NCBI GenBank assembly: GCA_964355175.1
Contig: CAYHBZ010000001.1
Span: forward strand, 304,523-368,522
Direction of reading: 5' to 3'
DNA length: 64,000 nucleotides
From: an uncultured Gammaproteobacteria bacterium
GTDB lineage: Bacteria > Patescibacteriota > Patescibacteriia > Magasanikbacterales > GWA2-37-8
The translations under genes and the position numbers were made by a program. Positions 7,271 to 35,901 of the stretch are shown in pieces (position 1 is the first letter of the stretch; each line of letters opens with the position of its first letter). The notes under the pieces were generated by a model. The model searched no databases and was not told the DNA's origin. It saw only the letters and a list, made by a program, of their open reading frames with translations.

Positions 7271-7321
7271 TTTTAATTAAAAAGACTATATCATTTCTCC
7301 CACGAAAAATCAAGACTTCGT

Positions 7322-10185: not shown

Positions 10186-11734
<1,549 letters not shown>

Positions 11735-11837
11735 TAAAAAAAGAGAATGATAAGCTCGGAAAAATTCCGAACTATTATTTGTTTTGTTGTTGAATAGACA
11801 GATTTTTAAATATATAAATTTTACTTTATATACTTAT

Positions 11838-17954: not shown

Positions 17955-18004
17955 CAGCTCTGCTTTTCTATAATATCAAAATCCTGAAATTCGGTCAATC
18001 TTTT

Positions 18005-18062
18005 TGTCATCCCGAGCGATAGCGAGGGATCTTTAGATTCCTCATTATATTCGGAATGACAG
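18005..18062. repeat. Palindromic element family, copy A (intergenic, KH gene to rpsP)
   Basis: tgtcatcccgagcgatagcgagggatctttagattcctcattatattcggaatgacag. It has nested inverted repeats (gtcatcccga/tcggaatgac, gagggatct/agattcctc) and is homologous to copies at 18884-18937 and 35616-35684. Confidence 0.55.
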
Positions 18063-18066
18063 CGAA

Positions 18067-18381
18067 TTACGCAATTTTTTTCTTCTCGGCCAATTTAGTA
18101 GCGCGACGCTTACTGATAAATACTGATTTTTTTGTTTTGCCTTTTACCAATCCAGCTTTCAAAAACAAATTGTGCAAAGTTGGAGAGGCCTGAGCGCCTT
18201 TACCAATCCAGTAAGTAATTCTTTCGGCATTTGGCAAAAGTTGATTTTCTTTGGCGTGTGGATTGTAAGTACCAACCTGTTCCAAATAAGTACCCCAAGT
18301 ATCCTTGGTCTTTTCAGAAACGATAATGCGATATGTGGCAAATTTATTTTTACCAATACGCTGTAAACGAATTGCTAACAT
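18067..18381 (-). CDS. rpsP: 30S ribosomal protein S16
   Basis: MLAIRLQRIGKNKFATYRIIVSEK...EQVGTYNP is the canonical S16 N-terminus. Lys-rich C-terminal extension. Confidence 0.85.
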   Translation of the reverse strand: MLAIRLQRIGKNKFATYRIIVSEKTKDTWGTYLEQVGTYNPHAKENQLLPNAERITYWIGKGAQASPTLHNLFLKAGLVKGKTKKSVFISKRRATKLAEKKKIA

Positions 18382-18464
18382 AGATTAATTTAATTTTTAT
18401 AAGAGTTTCTCTCATGACTTGTGAAGATCACGGAGAAGTTAAGAGCTGGCCTACTATACTATGT

Positions 18465-21400
18465 TTAGCTGGTTTTGTCAACATTTTCCTGGTCGGCGTA
18501 CTTCCCGATCTCGCCGATATTCACACTCAGTAGCTTGGAAACACCTTCGCCGCCCATAGTCACCCCGTAGAGCGCGTCGGCCGAGTGCATAGTGACGCGG
18601 TTGTGGGTAATCACGATAAATTGAGATTTGGCGGCCAATTCACTCATAATATTGGCAAAACGCAGAGTGTTGGCTTCATCGAGCGCCGCTTCAACTTCAT
18701 CCATTACTACAAATGGAGATGGGTTGCAGTTTAATATGGCGCAGATTAGCGCTATCGAGGTAAGGGTGCGTTCACCGCCCGACAGAGAGCTGATATTTTT
18801 TATTTTCTTACCGGGTGGGTTTACGATAATATCAATACCGGTAAGAATTTTATCGCGTTTTTTGTTTTTCAATACACCACCATTGTCATCCCCGTGAAAA
18901 CGGGGATCTTGGATTCCCGCTTCCGCGGGAATGACAGAGCCGTCGTTTGAAATGACATTACCATTGGCATCCAACATTTCTTCGCTTTCCGGTTCGCCAT
19001 AAATTTCTTCAAGCTGTGCTCCCCCACCATTAAATAATATTTGAAAATAACGATCAAATTCTTTGCGAATTTGTTTAAAGGCTTGTGAGCGTTTTTTCTT
19101 CATGATTTCGTCGAGTTCTTCGATCATCTTAGACAGATCCCCCACCGCTTTGGTCAAATCTTCCAGTTGACTGGAGAGAAAATCATAACGTTCTTTGGTG
19201 GTTTCGTATTCTTTCACTACTTCTTCATCAATACCACCAATCAAACTAAGCTGATATTTAAATTTAGAAATTGAATCCGCCACCTGATCCAGATCCACTT
19301 GAGAAAGCACACTATCCCAGCGTTCAGAGATACTCAAAAGCGAAGAACTGAGCTCATTATTGGCTTCATTATTTAGATCTTCATTTTTGGTTTCAATTTT
19401 AGCCAATTGAATCTTGAATTCATTGCGGCTACTCAGAATTTCATTAACTTCCGTCTGTTTTTTCTGCATTACTTCTTGCAAAGCAAACACGCGCTGTTTT
19501 TTAATTTCTTCCGCGTCATTAAAATTCTTTATTTCAGTAGCAATTTCCAAAATATCTTTCTCGCTGTTTTCAATTTCCGCTTTTACTTTATTTCTTTCCA
19601 CTTCCAAATCTTTCAGATGTTCGCCATACTCCTGCGGACTCATGCGAATAAAATTCAATTCTTTTTCCATCTGCACAAATTCGGCACTCTGCGAATCGCG
19701 CTGAGTGTGCAAAGCAATTAATTGATTTTGAGATTTTTCTTTTTCCATCTGGGCCAAAAGCTGGTCGGTCTTGGCTTTATCGAGTTGTATTTCTAAATCA
19801 CGGAAAATTTGTTCTTGTTTTATCAATTCTTCTTGATAATTAAAACCGGCATTTTCCGCAAAAGAAGTACTGCCGGAAAAACTCAAATGCATTCTTTTTT
19901 GTCCACGGAAACCACCTTTCATTACACCCCGTTTTTCCGCCACATCACCATCCAGAGTAACATAACGAATACGGCCGATACCCAAGCGTTGGGCCACAGC
20001 CAAATTTTTCACTATCAAGGTGTCGCCCAGGATAAATGAAAAAACATTACGAAATTTTTCATCAAATTTCACCAGATCAATCGCCAAACCAAATACGCCG
20101 TCTTCGTTTACTAGATTCTGGGCTTCGTAGCTTTCATTACGACCCACGATTTTATTAATCGGCAAAAAGGTGGCCACACCCATTTTTTCTTCACGCAAAA
20201 ATTCAATGGCGTTTTTGGCCACACTTTCATCAGCCACTACCAGCGATGATAAATTCGCGCCGGCGGCCACTTCCAGAGCGGTACGGTATTCATCCTGCAC
20301 TTCACCCAGCTCGGCCACCAGGCCATATACTTTTCCCAATCGATTTTTGTTTTCCAAAACTGAGCGTACGGCCGTAAGACCACTAAGCTCCAGATACTGA
20401 CGCTCGCTTTTTTGTTCAAATTGTTTGGTTTGCAATTGTGACAGACGCACCGCCGCCTGAGTTTTTTCGCGCGCCAAATCTTGCACCATCGCATTTTTTT
20501 GCGCGAACAATTTTTCCGCTTTCGAAATTTCCGCTTCAATGGACGCGCTATCACGATTTAATTTTTCTTTTTGAATCTGCAATTCCGCCACTTTATTTTC
20601 CAACCAACCGATATTTTGCTTGCCCAAATCACTATAGGCGTTTTGAATTTTGCCGGATAATATGGCCAACTCACGCTCCCAATCATTTTTAATTTTTACA
20701 GCCGCTTGATGTTTTTCTTGTAATTTTACAAACACTTCCTGACGACTTTCCGCGCGCGCCAAATCCGACAATTCATTCTGCACCGTTTCCAATTCTTTAA
20801 AAGCAATACGATAATTTTCATCCAATTCTTTTATGGTTTTATCCAGCTTATCCATCTCAGTTTTATTGCTCCAATATAGCGATCCATAGTATTTTTCTTG
20901 AGCTTCACGCAAATTTATTTCCACTTCATGGCGCTGTTCCAATTTACGGACCTGTTTGGAAAGCAGACGCAAACGCGGCTCTACTTCTTTGAGCAATGTA
21001 TCCACCTGCTTCATATTATCCTCTGTCCGCGCCAATTTCAGGCTGGCCTGGTGGTGTTTGATTTGATATTCCTTTATACCGGAAGCTTCATCCAAAAAAT
21101 CTTTACGCTCGGCTGGTGTCACCGTCAACATTTTGTCTATTGTCCCCTGACCGACTATACTATAAGAGTGCTGGCCAAACTGTGCCTTGGCAAGCAAAAG
21201 ATGGATATCCAGCATGCGCACCGGATTACTGTTTATGAGATACTCACCTTCGCCACTGCGATATAGACGGCGCGTAATCACCACTTCTTCGGCTTCAATA
21301 TCCGCGCGATTATCAGAATTATCGAGTACCATCGAAATTTCGCAAGCACCCAGTGCTCCGCGCGCTGCCGAGCCACCAAAAATAATATCTTCGCTCTTTT

Positions 21401-21623
21401 TACCACGCAAAGTTTTTAGGCTCTGTTCACCCATTACCCAGCGAATCGCATCCACCACATTGGATTTGCCCGAGCCGTTTGGCCCCACAATTGCAGTAAC
21501 ACTAAAACGACCGTCACGGGGCGGCAAAAAGTTTAATTTGGTCTTTTCAGCAAAGGATTTAAATCCCTGAATTTCTAAACTTTTGAGATACATAATTATG
21601 CGGCTTATTATACCACAGCCCAA
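18465..21623 (-). CDS. smc: Chromosome segregation protein SMC
   Basis: Walker A GPNGSGKSN, long coiled-coil, hinge, C-terminal signature LSGGERTLTSIAL and Walker B VVMDEVEAALD. The probable start is MYLKSLEIQGF. It carries an in-frame palindromic-element insertion near the C-terminal head (..SVIPAEAGIQDPRFHGDDN..). Confidence 0.85.
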   Translation of the reverse strand: MGCGIISRIIMYLKSLEIQGFKSFAEKTKLNFLPPRDGRFSVTAIVGPNGSGKSNVVDAIRWVMGEQSLKTLRGKKSEDIIFGGSAARGALGACEISMVLDNSDNRADIEAEEVVITRRLYRSGEGEYLINSNPVRMLDIHLLLAKAQFGQHSYSIVGQGTIDKMLTVTPAERKDFLDEASGIKEYQIKHHQASLKLARTEDNMKQVDTLLKEVEPRLRLLSKQVRKLEQRHEVEINLREAQEKYYGSLYWSNKTEMDKLDKTIKELDENYRIAFKELETVQNELSDLARAESRQEVFVKLQEKHQAAVKIKNDWERELAILSGKIQNAYSDLGKQNIGWLENKVAELQIQKEKLNRDSASIEAEISKAEKLFAQKNAMVQDLAREKTQAAVRLSQLQTKQFEQKSERQYLELSGLTAVRSVLENKNRLGKVYGLVAELGEVQDEYRTALEVAAGANLSSLVVADESVAKNAIEFLREEKMGVATFLPINKIVGRNESYEAQNLVNEDGVFGLAIDLVKFDEKFRNVFSFILGDTLIVKNLAVAQRLGIGRIRYVTLDGDVAEKRGVMKGGFRGQKRMHLSFSGSTSFAENAGFNYQEELIKQEQIFRDLEIQLDKAKTDQLLAQMEKEKSQNQLIALHTQRDSQSAEFVQMEKELNFIRMSPQEYGEHLKDLEVERNKVKAEIENSEKDILEIATEIKNFNDAEEIKKQRVFALQEVMQKKQTEVNEILSSRNEFKIQLAKIETKNEDLNNEANNELSSSLLSISERWDSVLSQVDLDQVADSISKFKYQLSLIGGIDEEVVKEYETTKERYDFLSSQLEDLTKAVGDLSKMIEELDEIMKKKRSQAFKQIRKEFDRYFQILFNGGGAQLEEIYGEPESEEMLDANGNVISNDGSVIPAEAGIQDPRFHGDDNGGVLKNKKRDKILTGIDIIVNPPGKKIKNISSLSGGERTLTSIALICAILNCNPSPFVVMDEVEAALDEANTLRFANIMSELAAKSQFIVITHNRVTMHSADALYGVTMGGEGVSKLLSVNIGEIGKYADQENVDKTS
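18884..18937. repeat. Palindromic element family, copy C, inserted in-frame within smc
   Basis: tgtcatccccgtgaaaacggggatcttggattcccgcttccgcgggaatgacag forms two adjacent hairpins and has the same termini (TGTCATCC...GGAATGACAG) as copies A and B. It encodes VIPAEAGIQDPRFHGDDN in the smc frame. Confidence 0.55.
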
Positions 21624-21628
21624 TTATC

Positions 21629-22630
21629 TTGACAAAACCCCAAAATGGGGATATAATCGCCTGTTCCTTATATATGAAGAAAATAGTTTTACAAATTCAC
21701 GATAAGATCAAAAACGCCAAAAATGTGGTTTTGATTCCGCATCAAAACGCCGATGGCGATGCCCTGGGATCGGCGGGCGCGCTTTTTGATTATCTCACTT
21801 CGCTTGGCATCCAAGTGCGTATTTTTTGTCTTACCCCTCTGAATCCCCGCCTGAGCTTTTTGCCGCATAGTGAAAAACTCACCACCGACCAAAGTATTTT
21901 TTTGGATAAAGAAATTGATTATATTATCGTAGTGGATTCCGGCGATCTGGAATATGCCGGCGTCCATAATTTGGTAAAAGATCATCCGGCCGAAATTATT
22001 AATATTGATCACCACCACACCAACAAACAATTTGGTACTCATAATTTAGTGATCCCCACCATGAGCTCTACCGCAGAAGTAATTTTTCATTTTCTGCGTC
22101 ATGTTCGCGCGCGCTTTACCCATCGTATTGCCACTGCCCTACTTACCGGCATCATCACCGACACCGATAATTTCACCAATGCCGCCACCTCCCAAAGCGC
22201 TATGGCCGCGGCCGGCGAACTGATTCGTCACGGTGGCAATTTGAATCTGATCAACACCCATACTGTCCGCAATAAATCCGTGAATCTCTTGCATTTATGG
22301 GGCGAAGTACTAAATCGCCTCCAAAAACACGAGGGTCTGGATATGGTCTATACCTATATCACCCAAGCCGATTTGGACAAACACCAAGTGAGCGAAAACG
22401 AAAGTGAAGGCATTGCCAATTTTCTCAACAACTTAGACGAAGGCAAGCTGGCCTTAATTCTCAAAGAAACAAAAGACGGAAAAATCAAAGGCAGTTTCCG
22501 TACCACTCGCGACGACACCGATGTCTCGGCGCTCGCCAAAAAAATGGGCGGCGGCGGACACAAAAAAGCGGCGGGATTTTCTACTACAGGTACAATTGAA
22601 GAAGTATTAGAAAAAATAATGGCTTTGTAA
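21629..22630 (+). CDS. DHH/DHHA1 family phosphoesterase (NrnA-like bifunctional oligoribonuclease/pAp phosphatase)
   Basis: HQNADGDALGSAGAL, IVVDSGD, NIDHHHTN (DHH motif) and C-terminal GGGH (DHHA1). The start may be the internal MKKIVLQ Met. Confidence 0.7.
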   Translation: MTKPQNGDIIACSLYMKKIVLQIHDKIKNAKNVVLIPHQNADGDALGSAGALFDYLTSLGIQVRIFCLTPLNPRLSFLPHSEKLTTDQSIFLDKEIDYIIVVDSGDLEYAGVHNLVKDHPAEIINIDHHHTNKQFGTHNLVIPTMSSTAEVIFHFLRHVRARFTHRIATALLTGIITDTDNFTNAATSQSAMAAAGELIRHGGNLNLINTHTVRNKSVNLLHLWGEVLNRLQKHEGLDMVYTYITQADLDKHQVSENESEGIANFLNNLDEGKLALILKETKDGKIKGSFRTTRDDTDVSALAKKMGGGGHKKAAGFSTTGTIEEVLEKIMAL

Positions 22631-22689
22631 TTTTTTGGTTGACCTGCGAGTATAATAATAGTAAAATATCAATAATACTTTCCATTCAC

Positions 22690-22845
22690 TCACCTGTGAA
22701 AACACTCGGATAATTTGCAACCCGCCGAAGCTCTGGCTCTGAACTCGTCGCTTGGCTCCTCAAACAGCAGAGCCAGCCACGCTTCGTCGGCTCACAAATT
22801 ATTTCCTCGTGTTTTCAATGGTTCGTTCATTGGAAAATATTATTT
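22690..22845. repeat. About 155-bp imperfect palindrome between the DHH gene and clpP
   Basis: Left arm ttccattcactcacctgtgaaaacactcggataatttgcaacccgccgaagctctggctctg and right arm cagagccagccacgcttcgtcggctcacaaattatttcctcgtgttttcaatggttcgttcattggaa are reverse complements with scattered mismatches. Confidence 0.4.
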
Positions 22846-22865
22846 CTACATAATTAAAACATACT

Positions 22866-23462
22866 ATGAATAACGACATTAAATCCCAGATACTTATTCC
22901 GACCGTTATTGAAAAAACCAGCTACGGCGAACGTGCCTACGATATCTATTCTCGCTTGCTTATAGATCGCATTATCTTCCTCGGCCAAGCGATCGACGAT
23001 CATGTGGCCAATATTGTAATCGCTCAATTGTTATTCTTGGAAAATCAAGACCCTAGCAAAGATATCAAAATATATATCAATTCCCCAGGAGGATCTGTAT
23101 CCGCCGGCATGGCCATCTACGACACCATGAAATATATCAAAGCCGATGTATCTACTATTTGTATCGGCATGGCCGCCAGTATGGCCGCCGTCTTGCTCGC
23201 ATCTGGCGCCAAAGGCAAACGCATGATTCTGCCCAACGCTGAAGTGATGATTCACCAAGTAATGGGCGGCATGGAAGGCCAAGCCAGTGATATCAAAATC
23301 CACGCTGAACGGATCCTACGCATGAAACAATCTCTGAATAAAATTTTGGCTGAACACACTGGTCAAGATATAAAAAAAGTAGAACAAGACACCGACCGTG
23401 ATAATTTTATGATTGCCAAAGACGCCGTCGCTTACGGCCTAGTAGACAAAATTGTTGAATAA
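22866..23462 (+). CDS. clpP: ATP-dependent Clp protease proteolytic subunit
   Basis: [34 protein letters not shown] (Ser nucleophile), MIHQ (His). Full-length ClpP fold. Confidence 0.9.
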
Positions 23463-23517
23463 TTAGCTATAATTAGCCAAAAAATACCCAAAATTGGGTA
23501 TTTTTTGTTTTACCCCC

Positions 23518-23546
23518 TTGACAAGATCCTCATTCTATGCTATACT
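23518..23546 (+). promoter_or_regulatory. Consensus sigma70-type promoter
   Basis: TTGACA, a 17-nt spacer (agatcctcattctatgc), then TATACT. Followed by a non-coding transcribed region. Confidence 0.5.
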
Positions 23547-23551
23547 TATGA

Positions 23552-23800
23552 GTTGCTAAAAGTGAAGCACCCCGATTCGTTCGGGAACAGGATAAATAAG
23601 CATAGCCGCCCCATAAGGGTATTAGGATCCAGGTCAGTGCAAATTATCGATTCACAACAAGTAAGTATAATTAGCACCGACCCGTATCCACTACAAGCAT
23701 GGGGATGTGTTGACGGATAGAACTGGCTTCGGCTCGTCTTCTCCCTTGACACATCTTCTTGGGTGCGGTTTCCGGGGAATTAATTTTCCCCACAAAAACA
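23552..23800 (+). ncRNA. rnpB: Structured non-coding RNA, most likely a reduced RNase P RNA
   Basis: No ORF. A strong promoter and intrinsic terminator bracket it. Candidate P3 hairpin CCCGAUUCGUUCGGG. AGGAUAAAUAAGCAUAG with a single bulge can pair with 3' CUGGCUU (P4-like pseudoknot). CAUAAGGGUAUUAGG..CCAGGUCAGUGCAA resembles RNase P conserved regions (CAUAGGGCAGG..CCAGUGCAACAG). GAUAGAACUGGCUUCGG resembles ACAGAACCCGGCUUAUCGG. Confidence 0.45.
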
Positions 23801-23803
23801 ACA

Positions 23804-23836
23804 CTGCCTACTTCAAAAAAGTAGGCAGTTTTTTTA
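23804..23836. terminator. Bidirectional intrinsic terminator
   Basis: ctgcctacttc-aaaaaa-gtaggcag is flanked by A-run upstream and T-run downstream. It can serve the + strand ncRNA and the converging minus-strand vanW-like gene. Confidence 0.6.
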
Positions 23837-23854
23837 TTTTTATTTAATTTATTA

Positions 23855-25846
23855 CTAATTGTTTATCGGCACTGGTTCGCTAGGTGTAGCTCCTTGAGCT
23901 TCTGTCGCACCAACCGCCGGAGCTGCACAAGTTTCGCCTGGTTTGCACTCTGGCACCGCGTCCACACCCACCATACAAATTTTTGGCAACGGTCGATAGT
24001 AGCTATCAAACACACGATCTATTTTTTCACCAGCTGGCGTAACTCTACTATAAGTAAAACTGGCCACCGCGCCGCGAAAAGCATTTTGACATTTTACTTC
24101 GCCAGGTTTTAATTTAGCACTTTTTATTTCTTGTGGCTCGCCCGATGGAATCCATTTTTTTACGAGCGGATGAGTGTACGACCCATTGCGACCATCCGGT
24201 TTACCCCAGAGCGTGAAGATAAGTTGTTGTTTTTTATAATCAATCTCGGTCTGCAACAACAAATAATGTCCGGTATCATTTTTAAATTTTAAATCGAGTG
24301 ACGGCTCATACAAAGTAGCATCGGTACCGGGATTGCCATTCACCGGATCGGAATAATACCCGACCACCAAAGAATGATTTTGACGTTGGGTAATATCCAT
24401 ACCAGAATTCATGGCCATACGGAAAAGAGTGGTACCGATCTGACACATACCACCACCTATTTCATTTTTTATTTCGTTTCCTTTAATCACCGCTTCCGGC
24501 AGAAAACCATTTTCCGCCGTAAACGGACCAGCATAGCGGATAGCGGAAAATTCTTCATCTGGTTTTATAAGCGCACCATTTAGACGTGCCACGGCGTGGG
24601 CGATATTTTTGATACGATTGGTATGGCTATCTTTAAAAGTAGAATATCCCACCCCTACCACTTCTTCAATACCAAGCTCATTGGCATTGGCCATTTTTAC
24701 TACCGGCTCCGCCACATCTACAGTAAGCGCTACGGTTTTATTGGCTTGAGCCGGATGATAATTTCTATCTTTAAAAGCGGCATTGAGATCAGCATAAGTT
24801 TTTTCAGCATTCAAAGTAAGACCCGTTTGACTGGCTTGAAATTCCTTGACTTTACCTTTTTCATCCACGGCAAATTTGGCATCTTGCGCCGATCTATCTA
24901 CTAGGGGGCGCAGGCTCTCCAAATAAGTTTTTACTTTTTCTTGATTTAAAATAAATATCGGCTGTTGATTTTCATCCTTGGTCACTTCAATCCAGCCGCC
25001 ATATTGCGCCAAGGTCAAAGGCCAATCACGACGAGCTTTGGTCTGCGGATCCACATAATTTAATCCTAGATCACCATATCCCAAAACAGCCGCTAAATTT
25101 TCACTGGCTTTTTGGGCGTCAGAAAATTTTATGGCCGGTTCAAATTGTTTGGCGGTGACCGGTATATTTCCGAGATAGAGCTGACTCAAATTTGTTTGAA
25201 TTTGTTCAATAATTTTTTCATACTCAAATTCCAGCCCAGACTGCTCGGACACCACCGAATAATTCAACGGTGAAAAAGAAGTAATAAAAATATTAGCGTT
25301 GCGCGGTTTGTCTACTTTGTCGTCCAGATTATCTTTAAGCAGGCTCATTAAATTTAGCCAGTCTACTTTTACCGGCACATTCAAATTAGTATTTTGAACA
25401 CGATAATACAGCGGTCCAAACAAACGCGCCGGCCAACTACCCCCGCGGCCAAGTCCGTAAGCCGCCTGCCACAAAGCATAGCTGTCCAGCTTCACCAATT
25501 CAGCTGCCTCGCCGCCGCTGGCGACAGTATCAATACGCAAAACGGTTTTTTTATCGTTCACATTCACATCCAAATTTATACCCTCTTTGGACAATCTATT
25601 GTTGGTAGTCTCAATAAAATTATTTAAATCAGAGCGTGTCATCGAGCCAAGATGATAATTTCCGGCATAAACTCCCGGATAAATTTTATCCTGATAAACT
25701 TTCAAATAAGTAGCCGTTGCCCCCGAAACCACACCAAGTACCGCGACCAAAACCAAAAAAAATACCGCGACTATTTTTAGCGGACGCTTCCAAGGTTTTG
25801 CCTCCACCGATTCGCTCGGAAAGGTCTGTTTGATATCTTCATTCAT
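23855..25846 (-). CDS. VanW-domain protein (membrane-anchored, cell-wall associated)
   Basis: N-terminal TM anchor; C-terminal GGGMCQIGTTLFRMAMNSG...RQNHS matches the VanW-family core (GGGVCQVSTT..). Confidence 0.6.
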   Translation of the reverse strand: MNEDIKQTFPSESVEAKPWKRPLKIVAVFFLVLVAVLGVVSGATATYLKVYQDKIYPGVYAGNYHLGSMTRSDLNNFIETTNNRLSKEGINLDVNVNDKKTVLRIDTVASGGEAAELVKLDSYALWQAAYGLGRGGSWPARLFGPLYYRVQNTNLNVPVKVDWLNLMSLLKDNLDDKVDKPRNANIFITSFSPLNYSVVSEQSGLEFEYEKIIEQIQTNLSQLYLGNIPVTAKQFEPAIKFSDAQKASENLAAVLGYGDLGLNYVDPQTKARRDWPLTLAQYGGWIEVTKDENQQPIFILNQEKVKTYLESLRPLVDRSAQDAKFAVDEKGKVKEFQASQTGLTLNAEKTYADLNAAFKDRNYHPAQANKTVALTVDVAEPVVKMANANELGIEEVVGVGYSTFKDSHTNRIKNIAHAVARLNGALIKPDEEFSAIRYAGPFTAENGFLPEAVIKGNEIKNEIGGGMCQIGTTLFRMAMNSGMDITQRQNHSLVVGYYSDPVNGNPGTDATLYEPSLDLKFKNDTGHYLLLQTEIDYKKQQLIFTLWGKPDGRNGSYTHPLVKKWIPSGEPQEIKSAKLKPGEVKCQNAFRGAVASFTYSRVTPAGEKIDRVFDSYYRPLPKICMVGVDAVPECKPGETCAAPAVGATEAQGATPSEPVPINN

Positions 25847-25848
25847 AA

Positions 25849-26301
25849 TTATTCCTCCACTATAATAATTGGGATATTACCATCTACTTTATTTTTTGGC
25901 AACGCCACCGTCAGTACCCCATTTTTAAACTCAGCTCGGGCCATTTCCACTTTTACTTCCACCGGCAATACGATGGTGCGTGAAAATTTACCCCAATAAC
26001 ATTCGCGATAAAAAAATTCCAGCTCAGTGCTCAGCGGCGATTGGCGCTCACCACGAATCGTGAGCACATCATTTTGTAAATGCAATTCCACATTTTCCGG
26101 TTTGCATCCGGCCATCGGCGCCACCACTACCACTTCGTCTTTTGTCTGCACCACATCTATCGCCAGCTGACCTTCGCTGTTTAAAGCCGAAGATTCCGTC
26201 GAATTCCCTTTCATGAAATCGGCTAAGATAGAAAAATCATCTGCATTGTTTTCAAGTGGCAGAGAAAAATTATTATTCATATGTCTATTATTATACAACA
26301 A
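25849..26301 (-). CDS. Hsp20/alpha-crystallin family small heat-shock protein
   Basis: Alpha-crystallin domain: AIDVVQTKDEVVVVAPMAG..., ..AEFKNGVLTVALPK. Confidence 0.8.
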   Translation of the reverse strand: MLYNNRHMNNNFSLPLENNADDFSILADFMKGNSTESSALNSEGQLAIDVVQTKDEVVVVAPMAGCKPENVELHLQNDVLTIRGERQSPLSTELEFFYRECYWGKFSRTIVLPVEVKVEMARAEFKNGVLTVALPKNKVDGNIPIIIVEE

Positions 26302-26352
26302 ATTTCAAAAAAACAAAAATCGGCGACCAAAGCCAAATTTGCTAATTTTGCA

Positions 26353-28203: not shown

Positions 28204-28221
28204 TAGTTTAAAAGTTTCAGG

Positions 28222-28641
28222 CTATTGTGCACAAGAACGAGCCAATAAATAATCGTTGGCCGTCGGCTCGGCGCCATTTTTAATTTCATTGGCGCGCTTC
28301 TCGCCCAATTTGGCATAGAAACACGCTTCCATAGCCGGAGTAATTTGAGTCGGCAACTTCGCCGGATCAATACCCACTTTCTCCAGCGCTTGTTCTTGGG
28401 CCGGAGATAACATCGGATTCTTGTCTACTGCCGCATTGTTTGTATTTTTTGTCGTAGAGGCTGGTTGTCCATATGAATTTTGAAGCAAAGGTTTGATACC
28501 ATATGGATCGGCCACATACAGATAAATACCCGCAATGATTAGGAGAAAGAAAATGATTCCCAGAATCATAAAAAATATTTGCAGAAATTTTTTCATATAA
28601 TTTTGATTTAAATATATTACCAGATTTATTGTATCACCCAT
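28222..28641 (-). CDS. Hypothetical membrane-anchored protein
   Basis: ORF with N-terminal TM helix (FLQIFFMILGIIFFLLIIAGIYLYV). No recognisable domain. Confidence 0.35.
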   Translation of the reverse strand: MGDTINLVIYLNQNYMKKFLQIFFMILGIIFFLLIIAGIYLYVADPYGIKPLLQNSYGQPASTTKNTNNAAVDKNPMLSPAQEQALEKVGIDPAKLPTQITPAMEACFYAKLGEKRANEIKNGAEPTANDYLLARSCAQ

Positions 28642-28688
28642 CTATAACAAAAGCAAAAAGCGAGCTATTAACTCACTTTTCACGTCCG

Positions 28689-28779
28689 CGGAGAGGCAGG
28701 GATTTGAACCCTGGATGCAGTTTTAAAGCTGCATAACACATTAGCAGTGTGCCGCTTTCGACCACTCAGCCACCTCTCC
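28689..28779 (-). tRNA. tRNA-Ser (anticodon GCU), long variable arm
   Basis: The reverse complement ggagaggtggctgagtggtcgaaagcggcacactgctaatgtgttatgcagctttaaaactgcatccagggttcaaatccctgcctctccg has anticodon loop cuGCUaa and a long extra arm, typical of class II tRNAs. Confidence 0.8.
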
Positions 28780-28855
28780 AAAATATGTAAATTGTGCTAT
28801 AATTGTACCAGAAAAATAAAAATAGTCAACCCATCTGCAATTATCAACTTAGCTA

Positions 28856-30445
28856 TTGATTATGAAAAAAATACTTTTTTGGCTGTTATTGGTACTAAAT
28901 TTAGTCTATCCGCTGACCATTATATCCAATACCCTAGACGGTGATTTCGGTTGGCATCTGCGTTTTGGACAGGATATCCACACGCAGAGCTCTTTTCCCT
29001 ACCTCGATACCTACACCTATACAAAATATGGCGAACCTTGGACCAATCACGAGTGGGGCGGCGACTGGATTATTTACCAGGTTTATTCTCATCTAGGATA
29101 CTTCTGGATCAATATCATCGTGGCACTGGCCGGCGCTCTCGCTTTTTGGATTATCGGCAAAGCATTTATTAAAAAACCTGGAGTTTCTTTTTTGTTTTTT
29201 GCTCTGGCCTGCCAGATGGCCGTGTACCATATTTTCGCGCCACGTCTGGCGATGTTTTCGCAATTATTTGCCGCTTTGATTATTTTAATAATTGAAAAAT
29301 ATTCCTCCCGTCCGCGCGCGCTATACCTGATACCGTTTATTATCTGGCTGTGGTCCGTTTTGCACGGTAGCTGGATTTTGGGCTTTATTATTATGAATAT
29401 TTATTTGGGTTGTGCCGTGCTTCCATATATTGTGGGCCAAAAATACCAAAAATATTTTAATGAAGAAAAAAAGCCGCTTACTTTTATTTATCAGCTAATA
29501 GGGATTCAATTGCTGGCGGCAGTGCTAATTATAATCAATCCCTACGGCATAAAAATTTGGCAAGAAATCTTTCAGTATTTTGGACAAAATTACTACAAAG
29601 CCCACATTAGCGAATGGACACCGAGCTATGCTTATCCGGTGTTTCCAAAAATTTTGATTTTGCAGACCATTACCTTAGTATTGGTAATATACGGCTTTAT
29701 CAAACGCAAAGTAAAATTTACTTACCTGACTTTTTTCCTGGCCTTTTTTTACGCGGCCATGATGTACAAACGCCAAGCGATTTTTACCGCCCTGCTTTCC
29801 GCCCCAATATTATATTATACCGCCACTTTTATGCGGGAACAGATGACCAATTTAAAATTTTATAACTTTTTTATAAAACAAAAAGAAAAATTCTATTTTG
29901 TCGGAATAATTATCACGATACTTTTGATAATATTCTATGCCCGCCAAATGCACTATACCGATGATCCTTGGAATGACAAAATTCTTTCCTATAATAACGC
30001 TCCGCCCTACGAAGCGACCATATTTTTACAAAACTATACCGCGGGAAAATCAATAAAATTATTCAATGAATTCAGTTGGGGTGGATTTTTAAATTGGATG
30101 TTGCCAAATGCTCTGGTATATCTGGACGGCCGCGGCAGTGCCACCTGGATGCACGACAAAAATACCAGCATGCTACAACACTATATCGAACTCAAAGAAG
30201 AAGATAATGCCGTAAAAATAATTGAAGATACCGGGGCGGACTATATCATGTTACGCTATCCCAAATTTGTCATTAGCGGCATTCCCAGCTTCGCCGACCG
30301 ACATTTATTTGGTGATAATTTCAAAGAATATTTCGTGAATCATGAAGAAAAACTGAGGGAGAAAATTGACAATAGCGGTCACTGGAAAAAAATATATTCA
30401 GACAATCGCGCTAACATCTGGCAAAAAATTAATCCCGCGCCATAA
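28856..30445 (+). CDS. Polytopic integral membrane protein (more than 10 TM), possibly a GT-C-type glycosyltransferase
   Basis: 529 aa, hydrophobic throughout with periplasmic-loop aromatic and acidic residues. No confident family assignment. Confidence 0.4.
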   Translation: MIMKKILFWLLLVLNLVYPLTIISNTLDGDFGWHLRFGQDIHTQSSFPYLDTYTYTKYGEPWTNHEWGGDWIIYQVYSHLGYFWINIIVALAGALAFWIIGKAFIKKPGVSFLFFALACQMAVYHIFAPRLAMFSQLFAALIILIIEKYSSRPRALYLIPFIIWLWSVLHGSWILGFIIMNIYLGCAVLPYIVGQKYQKYFNEEKKPLTFIYQLIGIQLLAAVLIIINPYGIKIWQEIFQYFGQNYYKAHISEWTPSYAYPVFPKILILQTITLVLVIYGFIKRKVKFTYLTFFLAFFYAAMMYKRQAIFTALLSAPILYYTATFMREQMTNLKFYNFFIKQKEKFYFVGIIITILLIIFYARQMHYTDDPWNDKILSYNNAPPYEATIFLQNYTAGKSIKLFNEFSWGGFLNWMLPNALVYLDGRGSATWMHDKNTSMLQHYIELKEEDNAVKIIEDTGADYIMLRYPKFVISGIPSFADRHLFGDNFKEYFVNHEEKLREKIDNSGHWKKIYSDNRANIWQKINPAP

Positions 30446-31157
30446 CCAGTCCATACACTTTTTGCGCTCCGGCGGATTTTAATACACGCGCACACTCCTG
30501 CATCGTGGCCCCGCTCGTGAAAACATCATCCACCAAAATAATATTTTTAGAGAGCGCGTCACGACCTTGCCAAACAAAAGCGCCATTTAGATTGGACAGG
30601 CGCTCAGCTCGATTTAATTTGGCTTGCTGTTTGGTAAATTTTATTCTCTGTAAATTGAGATCATCCAACTGAATACCCGGATGATCTTTTTTTAATACTT
30701 GAAAAATATTTTGCGCGATTAATTGCGCCTGATTGAATCCGCGCTCACGCCGACGCCGGCTATGTAGCGGCACGGGCACAAGTGTGGCATCACAGCTAGG
30801 CAGATTACCGGCTTGCCAAATAGTATTCAAAAATTCTGTCGTGATTTGAAGCCAAAGATTATTGATATCCGTAACTAGATTATACTTAAATTTTTTTATC
30901 AATCCACTCACCGCTCTATTATTTTGATAATTAAAAAAGGCGGCCACAGCTTCTAGACTGCTGGCCGCCTGACAATTGAGACAATTTTTGCCGTTTAAAT
31001 TTTTCAGATGACAAACTGGACAATAAAATTCTCCGCCGTTAAAACTTTGTATTATACAACTATCACACCACCACACACCCTCTTGATCGCAGCCCAAACA
31101 AAATATCGGAAACAAACAATCCTTTATAAATTGCACTAGCTCCCCTCCCCTAAACAT
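30429..31157 (-). CDS. comF: ComF family competence protein (phosphoribosyltransferase domain, ComFC-like)
   Basis: N-terminal 4-Cys zinc finger (CLGCD..CDSC..CPVC..CLNC) and C-terminal PRTase motif ILVDDVFTSGATM. Confidence 0.75.
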   Translation of the reverse strand: MFRGGELVQFIKDCLFPIFCLGCDQEGVWWCDSCIIQSFNGGEFYCPVCHLKNLNGKNCLNCQAASSLEAVAAFFNYQNNRAVSGLIKKFKYNLVTDINNLWLQITTEFLNTIWQAGNLPSCDATLVPVPLHSRRRRERGFNQAQLIAQNIFQVLKKDHPGIQLDDLNLQRIKFTKQQAKLNRAERLSNLNGAFVWQGRDALSKNIILVDDVFTSGATMQECARVLKSAGAQKVYGLVMARD

Positions 31158-31160
31158 ATT

Positions 31161-31757
31161 TTATTTTACCATTGTAAAATTATCTACAAACCAAGTGTCG
31201 CCACTTTTTACCAAGCTCACTTTGGCCTGAGCGTCTTTTTGAGTAATCACTCCGCCTTTTTCTTCAGTAATTTTTACCTGCAAATCTACCGTCGCGCTGA
31301 CATCAGTCCAAGCGGATATTTTGGCGCTATAGGCCTCCACACTCACGGCATAAAAATTTGGACTATTAGCGGGAATATTAGCCGGAATTTTGGCACTTAA
31401 TTGTTTCCAGTAGCTGTCGGTGGCCAAACTTTCCACATCCATCATATTCTGATAGCGGCTTTCCGAAGAATATGAATTCAATCTTTCCACGAAAATTTTA
31501 GCAAAATTTTGAGCGGCCTTTTGCTGAGTTTCCAAAGTGCTGGTTTTTGGCACATTTACATTCTGTAGATTGGTGACTGGCAAAGTGGTGCCGGCAGGAT
31601 TACTTTCAGAGTCGCCAGGCAATACTGTATTACCAGCATTATCTACTGCCGGAGCATTTTTATTTTTGGAGCGCACATACAAAAATATACTGACACCCAA
31701 AATAAATAATACGATTAAACTAACTACGATAAAAATACGGGCGCGTAATGACATCAT
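31161..31757 (-). CDS. Hypothetical membrane-anchored extracytoplasmic protein (possible VirB8-like component; speculative)
   Basis: N-terminal TM (IFIVVSLIVLFILGVSIFLYV) plus a soluble domain of about 150 aa. Directly downstream of VirB4 on the same strand. Confidence 0.35.
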   Translation of the reverse strand: MMSLRARIFIVVSLIVLFILGVSIFLYVRSKNKNAPAVDNAGNTVLPGDSESNPAGTTLPVTNLQNVNVPKTSTLETQQKAAQNFAKIFVERLNSYSSESRYQNMMDVESLATDSYWKQLSAKIPANIPANSPNFYAVSVEAYSAKISAWTDVSATVDLQVKITEEKGGVITQKDAQAKVSLVKSGDTWFVDNFTMVK

Positions 31758-31766
31758 ACAAAATTA

Positions 31767-33635
31767 TTATTTAGTTTGATTTTCAAATTCTTGTTTGGCG
31801 CGTTCGATCTCAAGCAACTGCTGCGGGTTGGTGGTCACCAGCTGATCTTCGGTATACGAAGCCACGATCTTGATAGCGGCATGTTTGAGACCGGCAAAAA
31901 ATATTCCTTCACCCGGAGCACTCTCCAACAATAAATATTTTTCACTATCCGTAAGCATGAAAACTTTTTGAATGTTGTCCACGGCGGCCGGAGATTGGCG
32001 GAGCAACAATTGCAAAGCCGAATTGGTCACAATCGCCTGTCCGTATTGGGAATGCAAGAAATCATTTACATCCTGCGTAATAGTCGTGACACCCAAATAA
32101 TATTTACGACAGCGTTTCACCAAAGCAAAAATAAATCTGGCGGAATCTTCGTGTTGCATCAGCCACCAGGCTTCATCAATTACGAGCACGCGCTTGCGAC
32201 GCTCGGAGCGCACCGTGTTCCAAATATAATTGATAATCGCGTAAATAGCGAGCGGACGCAATTCATCTTCCAAATCACGCACACTATACACCACCAACTG
32301 ATTTTTCATTTCCACATTGGTTGGCGAATTGAATAGTCCACTAAAAGTACCTTCGGTATATTTTTTCAATTTTAATACCAATTCGTTCGAGCCTTCCATA
32401 CCTTCGAGCACTTCCTGCAAATCTTGCATGATTGGCGCTTCGACAGTATTGAGATCCACACCGGATACGATATCTTTTTTGGCGTAAGTTTCGATGAGCG
32501 CTCTATCGATTACCGAATCCTGCTCAGTAGTAATACCACCAAGCATAATACGGAGTAATCCTTTCACAGTAATAACCGCGCTACGAATAATATCGTCGAC
32601 AGACAAATCCTGCTCCATTGGGCGAGGCAGATCAAATGGATTTACTTTACTCTCACTGCTCAAAGAAATATTAATATAAGTACCACCGACCGCGTCAGAG
32701 AGATGTTTATATTCCATTTCCGGATCAATCACAATCACTTCCAGGCCCATCATGAGAGAGCGCAAAATTTCCAATTTAATGGCATAGCTTTTACCGGCAC
32801 CGGAAGTAGCAAATACTACCATATTGGCATTCTGCATCGAAAAACGATCAAACAAAATCAAACTATTGTTGTGACGATTGATTCCGTACAAGATACCATT
32901 ATCGGAAGTAAGCTCGGCAGAAATAAATGGAAAAGACGCGGCAATCGGCGATGAATTCATGTTGTAGGAAATCATCAATTCATCATTGCACAGCGGCAAA
33001 GTAGAATTAAAACCTTGCTCAGCTTGATACAATACTTTGCGACTCATGATCAATTTACTGCCAAAAATACTTTCGATATCTTCGGATAACTGATCCAATT
33101 TTTCTTTATTTTTGGTATAAATAGTGACATAAAAAGCAAACTGAAAAAAGTGCTCTGTCCCCTGGGTTAGATTGTCGCGCAAGCCTTCAATATCACGCAA
33201 AGCGGTCTCACGAATTGGATCACGCGGCGCGCCCTTTTCGGCATCGGCGCTAATCTGCGCTTCGAGCGCACCTACTTTATTTTTTAATTGTTTCAAAATA
33301 ATTTCGGCTTTAATCGGATAAAAGAACATTGAAATATCCATATTCACCGACAAACCAATCACGGGAGAGCTCCAACCCACGGAAATATAACGCGGATAAT
33401 TCATGATGAAAAGCGTACGACAAAAAGTGGTGCCAAGCTGGATAAAATTGGACTCAATATTAAAAGCCGCCGGCGCGATAATATCACGCAACGACACCAC
33501 GCCCTCACGATAGACCTGCTCTTCTTGCAGAGTAATGAGTTCGGCAGCGGTAGCTTTTTCTAACTTGCTTTTATCTTTACTACCCAAACTCGCTTTATCG
33601 TTTTGTTTGGCAATGAATTGTGGTTTAAAGGCCAT
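31767..33635 (-). CDS. virB4: VirB4/TrbE/CagE-family type IV secretion ATPase, C-terminal portion
   Basis: LGTTFCRTLFIMNYPRYISVGW (VirB4 region), Walker A VFATSGAGKSY, Walker B VLVIDEAWW, GVTTITQDVNDF. Confidence 0.8.
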   Translation of the reverse strand: MAFKPQFIAKQNDKASLGSKDKSKLEKATAAELITLQEEQVYREGVVSLRDIIAPAAFNIESNFIQLGTTFCRTLFIMNYPRYISVGWSSPVIGLSVNMDISMFFYPIKAEIILKQLKNKVGALEAQISADAEKGAPRDPIRETALRDIEGLRDNLTQGTEHFFQFAFYVTIYTKNKEKLDQLSEDIESIFGSKLIMSRKVLYQAEQGFNSTLPLCNDELMISYNMNSSPIAASFPFISAELTSDNGILYGINRHNNSLILFDRFSMQNANMVVFATSGAGKSYAIKLEILRSLMMGLEVIVIDPEMEYKHLSDAVGGTYINISLSSESKVNPFDLPRPMEQDLSVDDIIRSAVITVKGLLRIMLGGITTEQDSVIDRALIETYAKKDIVSGVDLNTVEAPIMQDLQEVLEGMEGSNELVLKLKKYTEGTFSGLFNSPTNVEMKNQLVVYSVRDLEDELRPLAIYAIINYIWNTVRSERRKRVLVIDEAWWLMQHEDSARFIFALVKRCRKYYLGVTTITQDVNDFLHSQYGQAIVTNSALQLLLRQSPAAVDNIQKVFMLTDSEKYLLLESAPGEGIFFAGLKHAAIKIVASYTEDQLVTTNPQQLLEIERAKQEFENQTK

Positions 33636-33638
33636 ATT

Positions 33639-34325
33639 TTATTCTTGTTCAATTTGCATCTTATCCATTGGCGCCATACGCTCGGTGAGAGCGATATCGG
33701 GATTATAAGTAGAGTACAATACTTCTACCAGAGACTGAGTGTCGAGGCGCACCACTTCCAGACCAATTCCGCGCAAACCAGACTCTACTTGGCGCACACG
33801 CTGATCTAAATCATATTTGCGTTTGGTGAATCTTTCCGCTTTTAGTTTTACCGTCACGGCCGGATGAAAAACTTCGCTCAAACGCGCCCAAAAACTTTTT
33901 TGTTTATTGGACAAAGGATCATAAGGCACCACTACATAAAAATTTTTGCTCATAATCTCCCCCATCTCGACAAGCTCCGACACAAAAGATCGATAGTCGG
34001 CAATCTGCGCGCGCAACAATTCATTGGTCTGTTCGCGCTCGCGTTTGAGCAAATCTTCCAGGTACGGCTTGATATATAATTCACGCGACTGAATTACCAC
34101 CTGCAAAGGGTGGTCCAAACCGTTGAGAAAACTCACATAAGCGGATACGATAGCGTTTTGTTCGTCTTCATTTTTCAAAGCAAAATTAATGCTCGATACT
34201 AACATTATAGCACGCATCGTGCCATCTTTCATCACCACGGTATCCTGTCTGATTTCTGAAACAGACAAAAATCTTTGGGCGGATGGTATGCTGGTTTTTT
34301 TTGCTGCCGCTTTTTTATTCTTCAT
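33639..34325 (-). CDS. VirB4-family N-terminal domain encoded as a separate ORF
   Basis: FALKNEDEQNAIVSAYVSFLNGLDHPLQVVIQSR resembles the VirB4/TrbE N-terminal region. Its stop TAA lies 1 nt before the ATG of the downstream ATPase ORF. The two together (228+622 aa) equal a typical about 850-aa VirB4. Confidence 0.5.
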   Translation of the reverse strand: MKNKKAAAKKTSIPSAQRFLSVSEIRQDTVVMKDGTMRAIMLVSSINFALKNEDEQNAIVSAYVSFLNGLDHPLQVVIQSRELYIKPYLEDLLKREREQTNELLRAQIADYRSFVSELVEMGEIMSKNFYVVVPYDPLSNKQKSFWARLSEVFHPAVTVKLKAERFTKRKYDLDQRVRQVESGLRGIGLEVVRLDTQSLVEVLYSTYNPDIALTERMAPMDKMQIEQE

Positions 34326-34331
34326 ATAAAA

Positions 34332-34784
34332 TTAATCTTCCGGTTTATAATAACCGCCGGTATTTACCGCCAAGGCCAAATCGCGCAGACGGTTATAGGA
34401 TAAATTTGGCACCTCCGCGATCTTTTCTACTAGCACCACCGTTTCCATTTTGCGCAATTGTTCCAATTCTTCTTTGGTGTCCATTTTATACCAGATGCGT
34501 CGACTCGGTCGGCGCAGTGTCTGAAACAAATTCAATAAAAAATAATGAAAAGACTGTCCGTTGATTTTTACAAAAGCCAAGATCAGAGAAAAGCTACCTA
34601 GAGTGGCTAGAGAGAAAATGAACAAAGCCATGTCCGCCAATTTAAAAGTAATAAATAAAATCAGTCCGGCAATTAGCAAGATCAAAAACTGACGCGTAGT
34701 CACCGGTCCAAAAATTTTATCCTCAACGTCAATAAATTGTGGCACTACAAACTGTTCCATATTAAATAGCCAACTCTTTTTCAA
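34332..34784 (-). CDS. Small two-TM membrane protein, VirB3/PrgI-like candidate
   Basis: FGPVTTRQFLILLIAGLILFITFKLADMALFIFSLATLGSFSLILAFV is a pair of TM helices in a 140-150-aa protein immediately upstream of virB4, the conserved VirB3 position. Confidence 0.35.
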   Translation of the reverse strand: MKKSWLFNMEQFVVPQFIDVEDKIFGPVTTRQFLILLIAGLILFITFKLADMALFIFSLATLGSFSLILAFVKINGQSFHYFLLNLFQTLRRPSRRIWYKMDTKEELEQLRKMETVVLVEKIAEVPNLSYNRLRDLALAVNTGGYYKPED

Positions 34785-35901
34785 AATTAATTAAAGCTTC
34801 AATTTCCGCTAAAGAAATTTTATCTCTTTCTCCCAGCACTCCGGATAGTGGTCGTCTCTGCTCTATCGCCTCATCCACCGCGCTAATATAAGATTGATAC
34901 AGAGGACTATTATGCCAAGCGTCCCAGGATTTCATAAACAGCAGATAGGATTCTTCTTTCAAGTTCAAAAATTTTTGTTTCAGGCGCTCAGCGGCATCGA
35001 CCGGCTTGGAAGACAGGCGGCGAAAATCTACCAGATTGAAAAATTGAATCTCGTCGAGAGGCCCCATGGCCATCGGTTTGCTATGCACATCGTGCATCAT
35101 CGCTCTAGGAGTCACCGAAGCCGCGCGCATTGGCGCAATATTTTGGGCCGGTTTCTGCTCTGTTTTTTTTGCGATCAAATCTTCGATCGGCGCCGAAGCT
35201 ACGCCGGCACTGAAAATAATTTTATCTACAATATTTTCTTTCACTTCCTTTTTTTCTACTTTCGGCAAGTAAGTGGTTGGTTTGGATTTTTCGGTCAATT
35301 CTCTAGCCTGAGTTTCAGTCAATCCCAATCCACCGTCTTTTATAGAACGGCCACAAGCATCCAGAGTATCAGGTTCACTGCGAATATCTTTTAGACGGAG
35401 CTGAACGACACTACGCAAGCGACTATCAATTTGAGGTGAAACTTTAAATGATAAACTGGAAATGATTTTGGAAACTTGATCGGTGCGATTGGATGCTACG
35501 GTAGTTTTGGCATGTTCACTGTCTGGGACTTCTTCATGGAGCAATGATTTCAAATCTTCATTTTTCAAAACTGGCTTTCCTGGCACTTTTTTATCGTCAT
35601 CCTGAGCGACTTTATTGTCATCCCGAACGGATGTGAGGGATCTTTCCGGCCTGTTAGATTCCTCGCTTACACTCGGAATGACAGTATTCACCTTTGGAAC
35701 GACAGGTGCTAAAACAGGCTTCACAGGTGCGGACACAGGCACAGCCGGTGTTGGCGCCACTGGTGTCGGTGCAACTGTTGGTACAGCCACTGTCGGTGTA
35801 GACGCGCCGGCCTGGCGTTTTTTTATTTCAGTCAAAGAAACCCTCTCGGTCGTGCCGTCGGATTTTTTTACCGTAATCATGATTTGATTATTGTCTGGCA
35901 T
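34762..35901 (-). CDS. Hypothetical protein (Pro/Ala/Val-rich linker) in T4SS cluster; contains an in-frame palindromic-element insertion
   Basis: 379-aa ORF. The segment VIPSVSEESNRPERSLTSVRDDN is encoded by repeat copy B. Confidence 0.4.
   Translation of the reverse strand: MPDNNQIMITVKKSDGTTERVSLTEIKKRQAGASTPTVAVPTVAPTPVAPTPAVPVSAPVKPVLAPVVPKVNTVIPSVSEESNRPERSLTSVRDDNKVAQDDDKKVPGKPVLKNEDLKSLLHEEVPDSEHAKTTVASNRTDQVSKIISSLSFKVSPQIDSRLRSVVQLRLKDIRSEPDTLDACGRSIKDGGLGLTETQARELTEKSKPTTYLPKVEKKEVKENIVDKIIFSAGVASAPIEDLIAKKTEQKPAQNIAPMRAASVTPRAMMHDVHSKPMAMGPLDEIQFFNLVDFRRLSSKPVDAAERLKQKFLNLKEESYLLFMKSWDAWHNSPLYQSYISAVDEAIEQRRPLSGVLGERDKISLAEIEALINFEKELAI
35616..35684. repeat. Palindromic element family, copy B, inserted in-frame in the 379-aa gene
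   Basis: tgtcatcccgaacggatgtgagggatctttccggcctgttagattcctcgcttacactcggaatgacag; an adjacent half-site cgtcatcctgagcg at 35595-35608. Confidence 0.55.

Follow-up and report, generated by a model that had tools for sequence, protein, structure and literature searches.

Three short palindromic elements that lie within a 64,000-nt stretch of Patescibacteria DNA are very probably head-to-head dimers of TGTC-tagged repetitive extragenic palindromes (REPs), members of the pan-bacterial CGTC-tagged superfamily that are non-autonomous, were in at least two cases gained recently, and survive at sites that tolerate them. The stretch (hereafter the window, on which all positions are based) comprises positions 304,523-368,522 of the forward strand of contig CAYHBZ010000001.1 in assembly GCA_964355175.1. 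A preliminary description had reported the three elements, here called copies A, B and C, and had likened their behaviour to that of Rickettsia palindromic elements (RPEs). The window has a GC content of 41% and contains 41 open reading frames (ORFs) of at least 80 aa, which occupy most of it. Its SMC protein has its best match (87% identity) in a Candidatus Magasanikbacteria genome, and the window belongs to the Patescibacteria, or Candidate Phyla Radiation (CPR).

All three elements were found again where they had been described (Table 1), so that the window alone holds the three copies that the preliminary description took as the fewest a genuine family should have. That description treated each element as a nested palindrome; the inverted repeats are indeed present, but each element is better read as two inverted stem-loop units of 26-30 nt, with their TGTC tags facing outward, than as a single palindrome. 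All six units start with an unpaired TGTC, end with GGRATGAC and have a stem that starts with AT. The stems of C1 and C2 are perfect and 8 bp long, and those of A1, A2, B1 and B2 comprise nine positions with a tandem G-A/A-G mismatch. The loops are of 4 nt (GATA, GAAA, GGAA, GGAT and TTAC), apart from the shorter one of A2, and every unit carries a 3-nt tail. Every copy in the window also pairs one ATCCC unit with one ATTCC unit (a C-T dimer). This does not amount to a rule, as contigs from the IMG/VR viral collection (L122-L178) hold C-T, C-C and T-T dimers (roughly 20, 16 and 30; the three patterns matched 18, 16 and 27 loci, some common to several).

Table 1. Positions of the repeat elements, their component units and the genes and sites around them, numbered from the first nucleotide of the window.
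Feature	Position	Strand	Description
Copy A	18005..18061	-	head-to-head REP dimer, intergenic
Unit A1	tag TGTC 18005-18008, stem-loop 18009-18030	+	ATCCCGAGC/GATA/GCGAGGGAT, tail CTT
Unit A2	tag 18061-18058, stem-loop 18057-18037	-	ATTCCGAAT/ATA/ATGAGGAAT (3-nt loop), tail CTA
Copy C	18884..18936	-	head-to-head REP dimer in SMC gene
Unit C1	copy C	+	TGTC then ATCCCCGT/GAAA/ACGGGGAT, tail CTT
Unit C2	copy C	-	TGTC then ATTCCCGC/GGAA/GCGGGAAT, tail CCA
Copy B	35616..35683	-	head-to-head REP dimer with 13-nt spacer, in gene X
Unit B1	tag TGTC 35616-35619, stem-loop 35620-35641	+	tail CTT
Unit B2	tag 35683-35680, stem-loop 35679-35658	-	three non-Watson-Crick positions, read by eye
Decayed half-unit CGTCATCCTGAGCGA	35595-35609	+	CGTC tag and one unpartnered stem arm, 7 nt from copy B
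SMC gene	18465..21623	-	1052 aa; Pfam SMC_N and SMC_hinge
Gene X	34762..35901	-	379 aa, conserved Patescibacteria protein, directly upstream of PrgI-like and TraC-like genes
rpsP (ribosomal protein S16)	18067..18381	-	stop codon 5 nt upstream of copy A
Promoter-like site TTGACC-17-TATTAT	17970..17998	-	preceded by TG; serves KH-domain gene 17571-17954

A search of the window for the terminal pattern TGTCATCC-N20-50-GGAATGACA returned copies A and C, and no match was obtained in 100 dinucleotide-preserving shuffles; the interior of copy B, at 51 nt, falls just beyond the gap range of the pattern. A strict scan for single units, defined by a GTC tag, a stem of 7-9 pairs starting with AT and a loop of 3-7 nt, gave six matches in the window, where 1.24 are expected from 100 shuffles, none of which gave more than 5. 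Of the six matches, five are halves of the three elements; the sixth half, B2, is not among them, and the remaining match, at 46474, was set aside as a weak stray. An additional GGAATGAC at 29970 was likewise discarded, as no hairpin is found there. The RNA-folding check suggested in the preliminary description showed each copy to fold much more stably than shuffled sequence does (z = -3.7 to -6.8, dG -25 to -35 kcal/mol). Paired inverted units can fold singly or jointly as one long hairpin, and copy C as DNA favours two separate hairpins. No match at the elements reached the gathering score of an Rfam model and a permissive threshold gave chance-level matches only (FtrB, E = 0.46; mir-2008, E = 0.73); Rfam is without a model for these repeats. 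The idea that the elements are chance palindromes or an artefact of metagenome assembly has a practically negligible probability, given the lack of terminal-pattern matches in the shuffles, fold z-scores reaching -6.8, and the fact that the sequences flanking each copy are parts of one gene, with matches in the same relatives. No observation spoke for it.

Two of the three elements lie within genes, in-frame, as had been reported. Copy C encodes VIPAEAGIQDPRFHGDDN, which forms residues 897-914 of the SMC protein and sits between the conserved GGxAxL strand and the GIDI...PPGKK strand in the C-terminal half of the head; the insertion leaves the Walker B region (VVMDEVEAALDE) and the signature motif LSGGE undamaged. 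Among the best 120 SMC homologues, the stretch around the insertion is highly variable in both length and sequence in Patescibacteria, and in the SMC head of B. subtilis (5H66, 3ZGX) only four residues match 50 residues of the window SMC, the 18 inserted ones included. Judged from these alignments, the insertion is located in a lineage-specific loop of roughly 50 aa. A comparison of SMC orthologues had been set beforehand as a test, and the 18-aa segment was missing from all of the best 120 homologues, the 87%-identical one included. Four SMC homologues (P0002, P0006, P0016 and P0104) hold other repeat-like peptides in the loop equivalent to 18860-18990, and examples from this loop in Patescibacteria homologues are NNLTIQQFNN, PLNLPSERGE...SPLLVEEG and RHSFSDGGS; further repeat families may exploit the same tolerant SMC loop.

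Copy B is in-frame in the protein that the preliminary description had assigned to a type IV secretion system (T4SS)-like cluster, and its gene (gene X) does adjoin a PrgI-like gene. The gene X product has more than 100 homologues in Patescibacteria and no Pfam match. Copy B contributes VIPSVSEESNRPERSLTSVRDDN as residues 74-96, within a Pro/Ala/Val-rich N-terminal linker that is hypervariable among homologues. The half-unit that lies close to copy B yields VAQDDD on the coding strand and is not present in the closest relative at this locus (L140, see below); it is probably the relic of an earlier unit. Predicted peptides that span the elements include SVIPAEAGIQDPR and FHGDDNGGVLK for SMC and PERSLTSVR for gene X.

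That copies B and C share orientation and frame had also been noted, and this proved correct: with the sequences read by eye in the coding orientation, two of three frames run through copy C without a stop codon and only one does so through copy B, and the two copies share one frame because only that frame stays open through both. This frame, GTC-ATY-CCN, gives a segment that starts with Val-Ile-Pro and ends with Asp-Asp-Asn. On this evidence, the common frame is best read as what selection against stop codons leaves, and the element itself need have nothing special about it. With about 94% of the genome coding, many insertions would strike genes, and those that survive there would be the ones that keep the frame open and fall in a tolerant, probably disordered loop. 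This would explain why both coding copies are found in an open frame and in hypervariable linkers, and we infer that the inserted peptides undergo translation and have little effect either way.

The elements are missing from close relatives. A Candidatus Magasanikbacteria genome with the gene order SMC-rpsP-KH (L001), which is 82% identical to the window over 2.65 kb with indels counted, lacks both copy A and copy C. Similarly, copy B is missing from the closest gene X homologue (P0121/L140), the product of which is 79% identical at the amino acid level, and the inserted segment was found in none of the 10 closest homologues. Window positions 35566-35809, which contain copy B and the half-unit, cannot be aligned with L140; this stretch is sharply bounded, lies inside the conserved gene X, and is flanked by DNA that is 91% and 95% identical between the two. 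Copies B and C, at least, were therefore very probably gained in this lineage after its split from close relatives.

Several observations weigh against recent gain as members of a mobile family. The insertions are not clean, as each copy is flanked on either side by bases that differ from those of the relatives, and neither a target-site duplication nor a clean empty site was found at any of the three copies; the palindrome may thus be only part of the mobile unit, or several rounds of remodelling may have altered the sites. For copy A, gain in this lineage and loss in L001 cannot be told apart, L001 being the sole relative compared. A Pfam scan of 27 window ORFs detected no Y1/HUH or other transposase domain, 20 small ORFs yielded no transposase, and the copies seen number three, within the 64-kb window. 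We considered whether the segments could be an ancestral linker that close relatives have lost. The altered flanks, which leave no simple filled and empty site, and the comparison of copy A with one genome only are both in keeping with such a history, but the coding segments are absent from all 120 best SMC and all 10 nearest gene X homologues and their sequences match a repeat family of many phyla, which is unexpected for a lineage-specific linker; we therefore regard an ancestral linker as highly improbable. A miniature inverted-repeat transposable element was also rejected as a class, for the termini are inverted but no direct repeats flank the three copies.

The family to which we assign the elements was defined by Di Nocera et al. 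2013 (BMC Genomics 14:522, PMC3733652), who described CGTC-tagged REPs in four families, CGTC-1 to CGTC-4. Such a REP has the tag CGTC or a variant (TGTC or CCTC), a stem of 8-9 bp with A-T and T-A as its first pairs, a loop of 4-5 nt and a 3-nt tail that is mostly CCA (PMC3733652). The units occur mostly as head-to-head dimers with the tags outside, both homodimers and heterodimers, some copies are intragenic, and no transposase gene is associated with them (PMC3733652). Intragenic dimers that are in-frame encode 20-30 aa and are most numerous in R. conorii (PMC3733652). The elements of the window have the tag, the 8-9 bp stem starting with AT, the loop, the 3-nt tail and the head-to-head arrangement, and depart from the consensus only slightly, in the sequence of the tail and in the 3-nt loop of A2; in-frame coding copies are a further point in common, and no transposase was found in the 27 window ORFs scanned. 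They differ in host phylum, as the hosts surveyed were Proteobacteria, Chlorobi, Bacteroidetes, Spirochaetes and Thermotogae, Patescibacteria not being among them (PMC3733652). Moreover, units in Patescibacteria (see below) are all TGTC and not CGTC, have tails of CTT, CTA or CCC as frequently as CCA and in some cases 3-nt loops, and are found inside ORFs in about half of cases.

Within the superfamily, CGTC-1 is the dRS3 element of Neisseria, and in R. conorii CGTC-1 corresponds to RPE-6 and CGTC-4 to RPE-4 (PMC3733652). Unit C2 (ATTCCCGCGGAAGCGGGAAT) is an exact fit to the 20-bp dRS3 pattern ATTCCC(N8)GGGAAT (PMC3898611); no such fit is shown by the remaining five, in which the stem either starts with ATCCC or is of the 9-bp type. 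Whereas dRS3 and the NIMEs of Neisseria number about 650-725, most of them within large mosaic arrays between genes, and serve as integration sites of phage Nf, the window has isolated dimers in low copy number, two of them coding, with no phage association seen. The RPE-like behaviour claimed for the elements is correct and goes beyond analogy, as RPE-4 and RPE-6 belong to the same superfamily. The likeness to RPE-4/6/7, which was judged by motif and shared features, includes the terminal ATGAC within the palindrome, which is the motif singled out for RPE-4/6/7 (PMC3767692), in-frame copies in housekeeping genes of a small gene-dense genome, and altered flanks, which in Rickettsia are likewise remodelled and are called 'extended RPE' (eRPE) regions (PMC3767692). 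The reuse of sites among orthologues and a solvent-exposed location (PMC3767692) are shared as well, the site in SMC being a loop. In contrast, the RPE-4/6/7 insertions are longer (84-192 bp) and conserved across spotted-fever Rickettsia, whereas the dimers of the window measure 53-68 bp and are missing from relatives that are 82-95% identical. The classic RPEs of 100-150 bp (RPE-1 to RPE-3) are unrelated in sequence (PMC3767692). REPINs, which go with RAYT transposases and are built of GTAG REPs, also consist of two inverted REP units that form a hairpin and are short, non-autonomous and interspersed. The elements were nevertheless not placed among them, as their tag is TGTC and not GTAG, no RAYT is known to be linked to CGTC REPs, and the scanned window ORFs contain no Y1_Tnp match.

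To see how widely such dimers are distributed, the pattern GTCATCCC-N10-12-GGGATC-N16-46-GGAATGAC was run over 185,579 species-representative genomes. It matched at least 120 genome loci, compared with about 7 expected by chance by our own estimate for the whole collection; the loci are preselected for C-T dimers and hence unusable for a test of heterodimer preference. Among the matches listed are Alpha-, Beta- and Gammaproteobacteria, Chloroflexota, Acidobacteriota, Planctomycetota, Nitrospirota, Gemmatimonadota, Verrucomicrobiota and at least 10 genomes of Patescibacteria (Uhr-, Davies-, Morani-, Wolfe-, Roizman- and Magasanikbacteria and Saccharimonadales), as well as a Rickettsiaceae genome (Tisiphia, L027), and the unit types CCCGCGAAAGCGGG, CCGGCGAAGGCCGG, CCGAGCGNAGCGAGG and CCGGACTTGATCCGG recur across phyla in these matches. 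A 3.8-kb contig from a Bathyarchaeota bin (L032) contains a dimer of the CCGGCGAAGGCCGG subtype, which is common in proteobacterial matches (L013, L051, L085); this copy could reflect mis-binning and not be archaeal.

Recurrence in Patescibacteria was assessed in a sample that had not been selected for repeats, consisting of 61 metagenome loci (L182-L242) fetched via conserved gene X peptides (442 kb, 39% GC, about 94% in ORFs). It contains 23 genuine units, all with the TGTC tag, or about one per 19 kb, compared with about one per 11 kb in the window, and roughly half of them lie within ORFs. Among the genome loci matched by the dimer pattern, the longest stop-free ORF across each dimer was considered only for AT-rich CPR loci, each of which was then checked individually, because a high GC content often produces long spurious ORFs and makes the measure unreliable. 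Nine of the 23 units are located in gene X, in the N-terminal linker or further along, 11 within 700 nt downstream of it and three elsewhere. Gene X and the 700 nt that follow thus account for 24% of the bases but for 20 of 23 units (with units as the count, binomial p about 3e-10), a p-value that overstates independence because related genomes may share insertions; counted as events, the figure is 14 of 17. The matching stretch of the window is 34332-35901. Seven of the 61 gene X orthologues have in-frame TGTC units or dimers in the linker, as do the orthologues at L179, L180 and L181, with differing subtypes and frames. At L181 (1600-1760) more palindromic sequence (TGTCATTTCGAGCGGAGCCCCAAAAGGGCGGAGTCGAGAAATCCC...GGGATGACA) appears to break up a REP unit, forming a composite that reads VSFRAE...GMT in an alternative frame. 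Both this nested composite and the half-unit beside copy B fit the idea of repeated insertion and decay. Outside gene X, another Magasanikbacteria genome (L050, 5444-5505) has an in-frame dimer in an O-antigen ligase, where it is read as CHSRESGNLTEKTDPRFHGDD immediately ahead of the Wzy_C domain; the R. japonica genes that carry RPE-4 likewise include an O-antigen ligase (PMC3767692). In L206 (10637-10659) and L211 (10881-10903), single TGTC units occupy equivalent positions by a ComF-like phosphoribosyltransferase gene, either at its start or immediately ahead of it, and the ComF-like orthologue of the window (30429-31157) has no TGTC unit.

Copy A is intergenic, as had been stated, and lies in the 3' untranslated region of rpsP, ending 7 nt ahead of the promoter-like site of the KH-domain gene. 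This site is conserved in L001, and the final codons and the stop codon of rpsP differ between the window and L001. The SMC-rpsP spacer (18380-18470) is nearly identical to that of L001, the adjoining coding DNA being only about 85-90% identical, and holds a promoter-like TTGACA-17-TATAGT site at 18481-18453. Copy A is not an intrinsic terminator because the sense (-) strand continues with ACAAAAAGAUUGACC after the hairpin and has no U-run there; the sole terminator-like call is antisense. REPs are typically found within 20 bp of the 3' end of the upstream ORF (PMC3733652), and a position after a stop codon is thus the usual one, where the RNA hairpin could shield the rpsP message from 3' exonucleases.

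This position raises the question of whether the hairpins are kept for work at the RNA level, with copy A acting as a 3' stabiliser or partial transcription barrier and the in-frame copies being incidental. The REP between malE and malF of E. coli exemplifies such a role, and in the relatives of the window REPs downstream of the PrgI-like gene would then tune subunit amounts. The location of copy A between the rpsP stop codon and the promoter-like site speaks for this account, as does the location of 11 of the 23 units from the 61 loci, downstream of gene X and around the PrgI-like gene. In addition, the outer stems of copy A are fully paired via G-U wobbles on the transcribed strand, where the opposite strand has C-A mismatches. 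In all three window copies the T-type unit leads on the sense strand, so that the long hairpin contains G-U in place of C-A. However, no U-run follows the hairpin, the close relative L001 manages without copy A, and 129 dimers from many phyla are unbiased in orientation (22 vs 20 between co-directional genes and 21 vs 16 in ORFs), with the result that an orientation rule was rejected and the uniform orientation of the window copies is treated as chance (p about 0.25). We consider maintenance for an RNA-level role to be unlikely overall, though far from negligible.

Another possibility is that the repeats are chiefly sites of recombination or integration, for example of IS110-type insertion sequences (ISs) or filamentous phage, and that the local variability results from this. 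Neisseria dRS3 is the target of the Nf1 integrase and has been implicated in rearrangements (PMC3898611), REPs are known IS targets (PMC1525189), dimers of the family do occur in viral or prophage contigs, and the linker around copy B is unalignable between well-conserved flanks. Yet no IS, integrase or prophage gene was seen beside any of the three copies, and synteny with the relatives holds on both sides of each, which makes this explanation improbable in our view. In the reading that we prefer, that of a non-autonomous REP dimer gained recently and retained at tolerant sites, spread would presumably involve a trans-acting enzyme that acts on single-stranded hairpin DNA, or recombination between copies. 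How CGTC REPs spread was left open by Di Nocera et al. 2013 (PMC3733652).

The preliminary description knew of no report of in-frame insertion of such repeats for this kind of genome. This stands for the Patescibacteria host, as full-text literature searches returned no work in which REPs or palindromic elements were connected with Patescibacteria or the Candidate Phyla Radiation, but it does not stand for the element family or its in-frame behaviour, both of which were described previously (PMC3733652). What is new is apparently the CPR host and the recurrent landing site in the gene X linker and the DNA downstream, and not the kind of element. A known repeat superfamily without a known transposase is thereby extended to the CPR, where genomes of about 1 Mb are roughly 94% coding, so that about half of the units end in genes, as in Rickettsia. 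For annotation, peptides of the VIP...GIQ, SFR...GMT and ...RNDD/GDD kind in CPR proteins are to be taken as repeat-derived loops and not as conserved motifs, and such loops can mislead alignments and domain calls. Small CPR genomes, which can be searched fully for a mobilising enzyme, together with the apparent hotspot at the T4SS-like locus, offer a handy place to study the spread of CGTC REPs. More speculatively, and with considerable doubt, TGTC/CGTC REPs might be pan-prokaryotic and move even in CPR genomes that have no dedicated transposase, with a concentration at the T4SS-like locus where repeated insertion and decay could drive both the expansion and the hypervariability of disordered protein linkers; if true, this would mean that a universal host function mobilises the REPs or that they often pass from one phylum to another.

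Some other features of the window were recorded alongside the repeats. No REP unit was found by the strict unit scan, the sole scan for REP-derived segments applied there, in four very large ORFs at 12920-17338, 37993-42189, 43756-51705 and 55996-62847 (1472, 1398, 2649 and 2283 aa, respectively), the first of which is built of Thr/Ser/Gly-rich repeats. The rRNA genes appear to be unlinked: the 16S rRNA gene (10186-11741) is followed by protein-coding ORFs and not by a 23S gene, neither a 23S nor a 5S gene is present in the window, and the genes for tRNA-Val and tRNA-Ile (7196-7394) are located about 3 kb away. The longest inverted repeat of the window (43019-43074), which is unrelated to the TGTC family, has 26-nt arms that are 88% complementary and a 4-nt loop, and is situated just downstream of the ORF at 43120-43665.

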